The notes below the pieces were generated by a model. That model was not told the origin of the DNA. It saw nothing but the letters and a program-made list of their open reading frames with translations, and did not search any database. The translations under genes and the position numbers were made by a program. Positions 9,777 to 11,912 of a DNA stretch of 64,000 bases are shown here, piece by piece (within the stretch, counting starts at the first letter, position 1; each line of letters starts with the position of its first letter). Source of the stretch: Chloropicon primus (Eukaryota); NCBI GenBank assembly GCA_023205875.1, contig CP060766.1, forward strand, positions 62,001 to 126,000. The letters are read 5' to 3'.

Positions 9777-11912
9777 ATGACCTCCGACGGCCCTTCGACC
9801 TCACGTCCTACTGCCAAGCGTCTACGTGGTTCGCGTTCTCCTCGCCGATCCCATTCAAAGAGGAGGAAGGGAAGAAGGAGAAGGAGAAGGAGAAGAAGGG
9901 AAGAAGAAAAAATTTTTAGGACGTATAAGATCGGTCTCCATTCAGCTCTCCAGCCCAGGTTGCGGGACAGCCTTGGGGTCGGAGGATGCCTCAAGAAGAA
10001 TGGGGTTGATAACCCATCTCGGCACGGTGTTGATGGCCCTCCACCATGCTCGTCGGCTTGGGGAACTGCCCGGGGCTTCTGCTGATCTCGAAACCTTTCA
10101 CCGTCGGTGCGGAGAGATGGTGACTGAGCTCAATCAACTCAGGGCTGAGCGGGAGGGGGGGCCGGTGGCGGACATCCAACTCCTCAAGAGGAGGTTTTGG
10201 AGGTGTGTTCCAGCGATGGATCGGGTTTCGATAGGTCACTACCTCCGCACCGTCTCCCACACGCCCAATTCGAGGGAATCAACGTCAGAGGAGTGGACAT
10301 TGCTCCAGGCATCCATGGCGGAGTTGGTTCAGGCCGCCACAGCTGCCGAGACCTCTCTGCGTCTGCCATCGCGGGCGCTCCTGTCGCATGTCATCACGGA
10401 AGCTGCACTAGTTCTCAGGACGAATTGGTCAAACTTCCTCAAGTACGGGACCTTCGATCACATGAAGCAATACCTGAGAGCAAAGTACCAACTGAACAAA
10501 TCCGAGGCTGCCGCTCTCCGAGCAGCCCTTTTGAGCGAGTCGCAGCCCCGGAGCCCCGACCTCGTCCAACACTACCACAACGAGCTGGCCCTCGTTCAGG
10601 GCTTTGGCGTTGCAGACTTTATGCACGGCACCGACAACGTTCTCGACCCCGCGGAGCAAGAGAGAAACATGGTCGTGTTCAGGTATATGATGCTCAAAAC
10701 GGTAGAGGCCTCGGACCTTCCGATCAAGCGTTTCACTCTGGTGCCTGTCTGCCGGGTGCGGTATCCAATGATCAATGTCTCGCGATCTTGCCTGGAACTC
10801 TGGGGCTATGGTGGTGGCCGTGGGTGGGAGAAGATTTTCACCAAGAAGGTGAACAACATCGCCAAGAAGGGCCACACGAATGGACGTACCAAGGCATTCG
10901 CTAGGCACTTTCGAACCGATGGCCTCAGCGTCGTGGTCGTTGTCGAAGAGGTGATCCTCGCTCGTCCCGACAACAACTATATAGGCCAAGGGAGCGGTGT
11001 GCCACCAAGCCTTCTCAGTTCGATCCCCGGAACACCGTGGGCGTTGATCCCGGCCGAATTTTTGTCGTCTACGCGAACATTCTGGAGAGGGGAGGAAGAG
11101 GACCTTTTCTCTTCACCTCTCCGCTTACCGCGACCGCTGTGGTTTCACGAAGAGGAATATTTTGGCACACCAGTGGCTGAGCAGAGCCCCAACAATCTCC
11201 AACAGAAATTGAACGACCGCGCCATTTCTCTGAAGCTCACAAGTGTAGATCGCCTCAAGGCGGCGATTGGGACTCGGCTCACCTTCCTCTCCAACGCCAT
11301 CGATTTTTTGGGCAACGGCGCTGGCGTCGAAAAGGGTTGGAGACTTTTGGGCGAAAGCAGCGAACTATGGAGTTCATAGCAAGCAAACTCTTCCCGACGG
11401 CGTCACACATCGTCTTCTACGGAGCCGCAAACTTCCCCTCTGGCATCAGGGGACGCCCTCCCGGGCCTTGCATCGGGCTCAAAAGGTTTTTGGTGACGAA
11501 GACCACACCAGGGAGATTCTTCTTCGTCGATGAATACAACACCTCCAAGATGTGCGCAGCATGCTCTCAGAAGAACATCTCCACTGAGCTGCGGAGAGTG
11601 CACAAGAGTGATAGAAGCCGAGGAGACGGACCACCATCAAAGAAGAGACGTCCCCAGTACGGAGTTTTGTCCTGCCCCAAATGCAGTATGGAAGTGCCCC
11701 GCGACGATAACGGCTCGGACAACATCCTCGCCATCGCCAGTGCTTTCCTCCAGGGTCTGTCCCACGCGAGATTTGGCCGCCAGCGCTGCGACGCCCTCTG
11801 TAGCGGCAAGGGCTATGGATCCAGGTTGAAACCAAGCAGGACACTGGATAAGATCTTTCTTGAGATCGAGGAGGACGTGGGCGAGGCGTCAGGTGAGGAG
11901 GGATTCAACTGA
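9777..11912 (+). mobile_element. Fanzor1 (eukaryotic TnpB/Cas12-related RNA-guided nuclease) gene, frameshifted as assembled
   Basis: Motifs in order across frames: RTYKIGL; EDASRRMGLITHLGTVLMALH; RFTLVP; HFRTDGLSVVV; RuvC-I VGVDPGR (D codon 11046); FSLHLSAYRDRCGF; SLKLTSVDRL; RRWRRKGLETFGRKQR; IVFYGAANF; RuvC-II VDEYNTSKMCAAC (E codon 11532); CPKC; RuvC-III RDDNGSDNI (D codon 11703). Confidence 0.88.

Follow-up and report, generated by a model that had tools for sequence, protein, structure and literature searches.

What gene lies in pieces at positions 9777-11912 of a 64,000-nt stretch of Chloropicon primus DNA (GenBank assembly GCA_023205875.1, contig CP060766.1, 62,001-126,000 of the forward strand; hereafter the window), and do its breaks belong to the genome of this alga or to its assembly? 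An earlier sequence-only reading of the window had proposed that a Fanzor1 RNA-guided nuclease gene was hidden there by frameshifts. Here, we assign the gene to Fanzor1 on the basis of profile, motifs, and predicted fold, find that the gene family is already known from GenBank, UniProt, and the Fanzor1 catalogue of Saito et al. 2023, and conclude that the window copy, as assembled, cannot make a full-length protein. Specifically, our explanation is that 9777-11912 is one copy of a multi-copy C. primus Fanzor1 gene that is frame-broken in this assembly, with at least its four single-base losses likely being consensus errors, and to this joint reading we give a probability of roughly 0.55.

A single gene across three reading frames

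Coordinates are positions in the window, and frames are expressed as position modulo 3. The sequence is GC-rich (GC content 0.50-0.62) and eukaryotic, and no open reading frame (ORF) spanned all of 9777-11912, with pieces of one protein being found in three forward frames. A hidden Markov model (HMM) built from 58 homologues, with zero Chloropicon rows, was searched against 1268 stop-to-stop ORFs of at least 25 amino acids (aa) from both strands. E <= 1e-3 was reached by four of the 1268, all of them on the plus strand within 9781-11909 and colinear with the profile. An additional frame-1 piece was colinear and alone not significant, and the next best match in the window, which was likewise not significant, was in frame 0 upstream of the others (Table 1). 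The homology path ran through frames 0>1>0>2>1>0. This is the 3>1>3>2>1>3 along which the sequence-only reading had stitched the gene, such that the independent search recovered the same colinear frame order. The first junction, from frame 0 to frame 1, could be bounded only to about 9860-9982.

The same locus in another public assembly

Word-based protein searches with the C-terminal piece returned one C. primus cluster of four proteins (P0001-P0004, 565-572 aa, 98-99% mutual identity), which are named 'hypothetical protein' at NCBI and 'Cas12f1-like TNB domain-containing protein' in UniRef and UniProt. Across the word-based searches, the proteins found were members of C. primus' own family only (P0001-P0004 and P0029). 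Exact database entries, on a contig of 605,067 nt, existed for six of eight window ORF translations, and the counterparts of two window neighbours, QDZ24294.1 and QDZ24301.1, bracket QDZ24299.1 (P0004; A3770_13p68170) on a contig of 602,165 nt. Because of this bracketing, P0004, an unbroken 566-aa ORF, is what this chromosomal locus encodes in the second public assembly of the species. Segment by segment (Table 1), the window differs from P0004 by three substitutions, namely AL for EQ and D for N, and all seven letters that are private to P0004 were present in the window (10504, 10760, 10811, 11257, 11587, 11625, and 11646). The gene is therefore hidden by frameshifts in this assembly, as had been claimed, and is an unbroken ORF in the other.

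The paralogue QDZ21418.1 (P0002; CP031038.1 808794-810512), which is 97-98% identical to the window gene and occupies a single 1719-nt interval, is listed as branch 'FZ1' in row 1450 of supplementary file 3 of Saito et al. 2023 (Nature 620:660). C. primus Fanzors are also mentioned in passing in a 2025 preprint, and the searched supplements of Jiang et al. 2023 held no Chloropicon entry. Thus, the suggestion that the lineage might be undescribed is not supported, given the annotation of the same locus as QDZ24299.1 and the paralogue in the published catalogue.

We also noted a 326-aa annotated paralogue in the other assembly (P0029, A3770_02p12240). This decayed copy matches P0004 over residues 34-317, after which its sequence switches to what frame 1 encodes near 11304, implying an internal deletion.

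Assignment to Fanzor1

When P0004 was compared to 1.84 billion representatives, 299 matches were recovered at E <= 1e-3, 25 of them at E <= 1e-10. Its own family alone was close; the other relatives had identities of 22-37% and, for the most part, lengths of 580-760 aa. Of three pieces tested, one, the C-terminal piece, matched PF07282 (Cas12f1-like TNB) at 32.2 bits against a cutoff of 26.3, and a separate scan gave 30.7 bits. The C4 zinc finger of this domain was present in 56 of 66 aligned relatives. In a 60-row alignment, D311, P312, G437, and E474 were invariant, and T267, D268, G269, G313, C484, C521, C524, R530, and D531 were nearly so.

Fanzors are recognized by a DPG in RuvC-I together with an alternative RuvC-II glutamate (Ealt) six residues before the zinc finger, the canonical glutamate about 50 residues upstream being absent (Yoon et al. 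2023, PMC10711439), and by a zinc finger followed by an RD motif (Bao and Jurka 2013). The DPG, the Ealt, and the zinc finger with RD were all found in the window gene. Specifically, VDEYNTSKMC (11526-11555) has the glutamate, six residues, and then a cysteine, and the upstream site, FYGAANF, has no glutamate. The D-E-D triad and zinc finger were both intact at the positions given in Table 1, as had been described from the letters of the window.

To place the gene among solved structures, we used a 60-row profile of P0004, 57 representative homologues, and two ORFs from the locus. This profile matched solved Fanzor1 chains over nearly the whole length of the chains, specifically those from Spizellomyces punctatus (SpuFz1, 8gkh, E 1.9e-72), Parasitella parasitica (PpFz1, 9cf0, 1.1e-60), and Guillardia theta (GtFz1, 9cer, 1.4e-59). 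Matches to Fanzor2 (9b0l, 2.9e-11), TnpB (8h1j, 3.5e-4), and Cas12 were restricted to the C-terminus, and a 17-row profile gave the same ranking. P0004 alone had no match among PDB chains at E <= 10, and single gene pieces likewise found no solved Fanzor. An AlphaFold2 model of P0004 had a predicted local distance difference test score (pLDDT) of 82.8 and a predicted template modelling score (pTM) of 0.84; an earlier model from a 10-row alignment (pLDDT 37.6) was not used. In Foldseek searches with the P0004 model, the best seven of 152 matches were Fanzor1 chains with template modelling (TM) scores of 0.57-0.71, and Cas12f, Fanzor2, and TnpB came next at 0.24-0.31. Because the full-length profile matches go to Fanzor1 only and the fold matches at TM 0.57-0.71 are to Fanzor1, against 0.24-0.28 for Fanzor2 and TnpB, we place the gene in Fanzor1 rather than in Fanzor2 or TnpB, in line with the FZ1 label of the paralogue. 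The proposed TnpB/Fanzor nuclease of Fanzor1 type is thereby upheld, the pieces of the gene matching the homologue profile and the model of its counterpart P0004 being predicted to fold like Fanzor1.

Consensus errors or mutations

We compared 9000-13000 of the window with Logan contigs of seven public runs (X1-X7), for which the DNA or RNA source was guessed. Extra letters relative to the window were present at all five break sites in every covering contig of X1-X5 and at the three covered sites in X6, and the short version seen in the window was in none of the contigs that cover the five break sites (X1-X6). Precisely these letters have to be added for the window to read through as P0004 does. 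Beyond the five frame changes of the sequence-only reading there is a sixth lesion, a 10-base absence at 11752/11753 that changes the C-terminal tail, which had escaped that reading because frame 0 stays open to 11912.

All four single-base breaks are losses, with zero gains, in homopolymer runs that have lengths of 4, 5, 5, and 7 elsewhere. Between 10989 and 11753, the window differs from P0004 by five indels and zero amino-acid substitutions, and over the whole gene by five indels and three substitutions, as against 1 of 555 and 1 of 684 residues in flanking proteins between the two assemblies; three other flanking proteins were each recorded on two contigs. This excess of indels over flank divergence therefore suggests consensus errors in the repeat to which the gene belongs. 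Moreover, the indels were not imported from another decayed copy, because they are interleaved with the letters private to P0004. In a Nanopore assembly, uncorrected single-base homopolymer losses inside repeats are an expected residual error. Of the two C. primus assemblies in the literature, one derives from Nanopore reads with short-read polishing (Canu, Nanopolish, Pilon; PMC12301720), and the window may belong to either. We consider that at least the four single-base breaks are somewhat better explained as consensus errors than as mutations.

The alternative, that the breaks are real and that the copy in this isolate is a young pseudogene generated by slippage and a 10-base loss, with an intact gene in the sister isolate, is the less probable of the two. 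Several points count in its favour or weigh against consensus errors. The breaks are in the sequence as given, and homopolymers are natural slippage hot spots. The 10-base loss is atypical of consensus error, being no homopolymer error, and the unique right flank is about 465 bases away from it, a distance that pair-anchored polishing should, we infer, be able to cover. At 10155, the longest run of the gene, G7, has its full length and agrees with the family contigs. Other copies under both locus-tag series are annotated as unbroken, and the seven letters private to P0004, on which the two assemblies agree, are missing from the contigs as well. Finally, truly decayed family members exist, as P0029 (326 aa) illustrates, and transposon-borne Fanzor genes commonly decay (Bao and Jurka 2013). 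Set against real breaks, neutral decay since the split of the isolates predicts, by our estimate, well under one indel per 1.7 kb, compared with the five indels in 10989-11753, where the protein has no substitution and the flanks differ by at most one residue in 555-684. Additionally, the four small changes are without exception losses in runs with a true length of at least four. That no contig in the seven runs carries the breaks is weak evidence, since the contigs drop variants of one copy in about seven and therefore cannot show the letters of this locus itself.

The two kinds of lesion may also have different origins, with the homopolymer losses being errors and the 10-base loss being real, which would leave an intact catalytic core with a replaced C-terminal tail. 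The lesions do differ in nature and position, four being in the repeat core and the 10-base loss near the flank, and one real indel since divergence is plausible. In the window, the paralogue tail HAQNWSVPREIWPPALRRPL is replaced by the frame-0 tail to 11912, and the larger profile prefers neither C-terminal tail (138.5 versus 137.3 bits). On the other side, the lesions are not separated by direct evidence, and the replaced tail would lose WPPALRR, which aligns with the conserved RPxxLxR motif of relatives in a small alignment. We regard such a mixture as rather doubtful; its share is counted inside the artefact and real-break explanations and is not added to them.

A biological bridge, whereby short introns, programmed frameshifting, or RNA editing would join the frames so that the full protein is made, has a precedent of sorts in the 5-10 exons of Chlamydomonas Fanzor1 genes (Bao and Jurka 2013). 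We consider it barely credible here. The paralogues and the sister locus read through the junctions with one extra base (10 at the last), no intron can add a base, the extra letters are plain sequence in RNA-guessed contigs, and QDZ21418.1 is a single interval. Introns and programmed frameshifting were thus rejected, since paralogues and contigs carry the extra bases as plain sequence.

Returning to the favoured explanation by consensus errors, the locus is a likely case in which uncorrected homopolymer errors in a repeat make an intact mobile-element gene look dead, such that it drops from the annotation of one assembly.

The N-terminus of the protein

The annotated 566-aa models have no counterpart of profile positions 1-72. 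A BLASTP comparison of 9781-10950 with the N-terminus of a viral relative (L008) gave E 6e-5, with the frame-1 homology continuing upstream of the annotated start at 10117. In frame 0, FRTYKIGLHS resembles the first conserved strand of the family (consensus tvKcgLss; E 0.41, not significant). In one contig of X5, an RNA-guessed run, an extra CAATT follows 9980; with it, frames 0 and 1 would be joined into a protein of about 680 aa. The DNA contigs end at this point, which is the behaviour expected of copies that differ there. The natural protein likely begins at ATG 9777 with a basic run resembling a nuclear localization signal (NLS) and has about 680 aa, in which case the annotated 566-aa models are N-terminally short. 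Two observations speak against this start: the N-terminal frame-0 segment is without significant profile support, and the BLASTP alignment with one viral relative follows frame 1 instead, starting near 9868. The public models are probably short of about 115 residues at the N-terminus, among them the NLS-like run and the first conserved strand, which is relevant to expressing this Fanzor1.

Six other letter changes of the X5 contig with CAATT recur in a contig from a DNA run, and the X5 contig leaves the window sequence after 10158, hinting at a second, more divergent subfamily with an in-frame N-terminus.

The repeat and its putative carrier

In X1 and X2 (DNA-guessed), contig word depth rose from about 100-160 in the flanks to about 650-930 over 9400-12217. 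This fits a repeat of about 2.8 kb that is common to other copies, of which there would be roughly 6-7, contig depth being a poor count. Contigs left the window at 9393-9396 in six of seven runs and at 12217 in all seven, and a depth-600 contig continued about 650 nt beyond 12217. Because the contigs run on past both ends, other copies are longer, and the ends of the shared stretch need not be the true ends of the element. Two further observations concern the left side. At 9396, a left-flank contig in X4, X5, and X6 (RNA-guessed) continues with TATTGACACCCC, letters that occur nowhere in the window and correspond to neither the repeat nor an empty site. At 9455-9457, other copies have 61 letters more than the window copy, with the joint seen in X3, X4, X5, and X6.

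The 3' part of the repeat contains a fragment of an NLE (NUC135) domain (PF08154, 43.9 bits, cutoff 23.4; minus-strand ORF 11889-12284, residues 58-107). The fragment is inside the multi-copy stretch and is followed by no WD40 part, an arrangement suggestive of capture from a host gene of the Notchless/WDR12 type. Near it, contigs had loose ends at 12107, 12169, and 12217 in several runs. Three 30-nt loose-end strings had zero matches in the window. For a Fanzor1, the expected carrier would be a canonical eukaryotic transposon (Mariner, Helitron, Sola, IS4, MuDR, and others) with recognizable ends. A search for terminal inverted repeats (TIRs) around the gene found short pairs of chance quality only, and the ends of the shared stretch had no terminal hairpins (z-scores 0.2 to 0.6). 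The statement that no transposase lies beside the gene is borne out across the window, as none of the 23 large ORFs scanned had a transposase domain. The shared stretch begins with TC directly after a T-rich TTGT, and a Helitron-like carrier is offered, by analogy, as a lead only.

The searched parts of the literature (including Saito et al. 2023, Yoon et al. 2023, and Jiang et al. 2023) did not describe an element carrying the C. primus Fanzor1, and metagenome and viral scans returned distant relatives at 21-37% identity only and no further copy of the element. An undescribed, TIR-less carrier of more than 3.6 kb, possibly Helitron-like, whose cargo is a divergent, giant-virus-related Fanzor1 plus a captured NLE fragment and which has recently multiplied (about 6-7 copies, 97-99% identity) is a speculative proposal that we hold to be unlikely. 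If true, C. primus, being tiny and culturable with a compact genome, would be a natural system in which to watch the role of Fanzor1 for its element.

Predicted activity and RNA

SpuFz1 and GtFz1 are known to cleave DNA beside a target-adjacent motif (TAM) under the guidance of an omega RNA (omegaRNA) (Saito et al. 2023), and for a Fanzor1 this RNA is expected to overlap the end of the ORF. By analogy, the product of intact copies in C. primus would enter the nucleus, bind an omegaRNA made from the element's 3' end, and cleave matching DNA beside a TAM. At the locus, Rfam returned zero matches, and 11740-12000, which was tested for an omegaRNA, folds no better than shuffled sequences (z -0.89). 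RNA-guessed contigs cover 10761-12141, bearing in mind that neither the ends nor the level of an RNA can be read from contigs. X7 contigs cover the flanks and not the gene, which is no evidence of silence. In X4, X5, and X6, contig depth differed between the 5' part (3-16) and the 3' part (40-89), a step that was taken as a hint and not used.

Features of the window

The features of the gene and its repeat are collected in Table 1. The neighbours of the Fanzor1 gene encode a SAM-domain protein and an ABC transporter. Elsewhere in the window, two 518-aa ankyrin-repeat ORFs on the minus strand (45317-46870 and 47388-48941) have the same domain pattern, lie 2071 nt apart, and look like a recent tandem duplication. 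HARE-HTH domain sites occur at 20489-25098 (plus strand) and 57938-61444 (minus strand), in three neighbouring ORFs (284, 305, and 349 aa) within a lower-GC stretch (0.52) and, as a fourth, in a 1169-aa DDT/WSD protein.

Table 1. Coordinates of the Fanzor1 gene copy, its motifs, its frame breaks, and the repeat around it.
Feature	Position	Strand and frame	Basis
Stretch common to other repeat copies, unique flanks outside	9395-12217		Contig word depth; contig divergence points
CCACAG-type hexamer microsatellite, then GA-rich tract, upstream of ATG and inside repeat	9627-9704		Repeat family D1; sequence
Likely N-terminal coding segment	9777-9980	+, frame 0	Open frame from ATG 9777; weak match to profile 15-34 at 9879-9956, E 0.41, not significant
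Basic NLS-like run	9861-9899	+, frame 0	Motif
FRTYKIGLHS	9915-9944	+, frame 0	Motif
Segment with REC and WED regions	9982-10988	+, frame 1	Profile 73-331 at 10207-10950, E 1.6e-25; 289/292 residues as in P0004
Annotated start MVTELNQ	10117	+, frame 1	Public models
FRTDG	10909-10923	+, frame 1	Motif
Break 1, GGG in window, one G more in all contigs	10986-10989	+	Extra G behind 10989
Segment with RuvC-I VGVDPGR (11037-11057)	10992-11088	+, frame 0	Profile 350-382 at 10983-11081, E 3.9e-4
Break 2, GGGG in window, GGGGG in contigs	11089-11092	+	Extra G behind 11088
Segment GRKRTFSLHLSAYRDRCGFTKRNILAHQWLSRAP	11090-11186	+, frame 2	34/34 residues as in P0004; profile 385-424 at 11084-11203, E 7.6e-6
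Break 3, CCCC in window, CCCCC in contigs	11187-11190	+	Extra C behind 11186
Segment NNLQQKLNDRAISLKLTSVDRLKAAIGTRLTFLSNAID	11188-11303	+, frame 1	P0004 comparison; profile 419-461 at 11185-11313, colinear, alone not significant (domain E 9.8)
Break 4, TTTTTT in window, TTTTTTT in contigs	11304-11309	+	Extra T behind 11303
C-terminal core segment	11304-11752	+, frame 0	149/149 residues as in P0004; profile 457-616 at 11298-11792, E 5.1e-42; PF07282
FYGAANF	11415-11435	+, frame 0	Motif
RuvC-II with alternative Glu, VDEYNTS	11526-11546	+, frame 0	Motif
Zinc finger, CAAC and CPKC	11553-11564 and 11673-11684	+, frame 0	Motif
RuvC-III RDDNGSDNI	11700-11726	+, frame 0	Motif
Break 5, 10 bases (T, then CACAAAATT) absent, present in every other contig	11752-11753	+	Contigs; P0004 tail AFL-HAQNW-SVPREIW
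Tail SVPREIWPPALRRPL and stop, as in annotated paralogues	11756-11803	+, frame 2	15/15 residues as in P0004
Window's own alternative tail, stop 11910-11912	11754-11912	+, frame 0	Open frame
NLE (NUC135) domain fragment, 3' part of repeat	11963-12113	-	PF08154, E 3.4e-11

Comparison with known systems

Within C. primus, QDZ24299.1 and its paralogues QDZ21418.1, QDZ20339.1/QDZ21102.1, and QDZ25362.1 are 97-100% identical to the window gene within the frame segments. In contrast to the window copy, from which four single bases and 10 further bases are absent, the annotated models are unbroken over 565-572 aa from MVTELNQ, and they omit about 115 further upstream codons that the window shows. Among solved Fanzor1 proteins, those of S. 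punctatus (8GKH, 9CEU-9CEZ), G. theta (9CER), and P. parasitica (9CF0) have the DPG, alternative glutamate, zinc finger, RD, and TDG in common with the algal gene, whereas their identity to P0004 in structural alignment is just 12-15%.

The nearest relatives from outside the species are Fanzor1-like proteins of giant viruses (Nucleocytoviricota; IMG/VR L008 and L012-L029), with 21-24% identity over up to 480 residues. Like the algal gene, they encode a basic N-terminus, TDG, DPG, YGAA, DEYNTSK, and RDxN in proteins of 580-710 aa, and their Atlas clusters carry PF07282 and PF26935/DUF8286. They differ in that their genes are AT-rich and some have no zinc-finger cysteines (L003).

The same alga hosts a second multi-copy Fanzor, Fanzor2* (UPR03652.1, UPR02811.1, QDZ25014.1, and UPR04245.1), which also has the DPG and Ealt. 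It belongs to another family, with proteins of 477-543 aa that begin MRLNPEQ, and is located inside a cut-and-paste transposon with TIRs and target-site duplications (Yoon et al. 2023, NAR 51:12414, PMC10711439). All nine 'Chloropicon' rows in the tables of that study are Fanzor2*, with the window gene being absent from them. Unlike the element of Fanzor2*, the carrier of the C. primus Fanzor1 is undescribed in the literature searched. The closest described parallels to its repeat are CRe-1, CRe-2, and CRe-3, non-autonomous Helitron2 elements with Fanzor1 in Chlamydomonas reinhardtii (Bao and Jurka 2013). Although the window repeat differs from them in having no terminal hairpins and in that other copies run past its ends, both cases combine a green-algal Fanzor1 with variable ends and with neither a transposase of their own nor TIRs, and the window adds a TC start and a host-gene fragment to this likeness.

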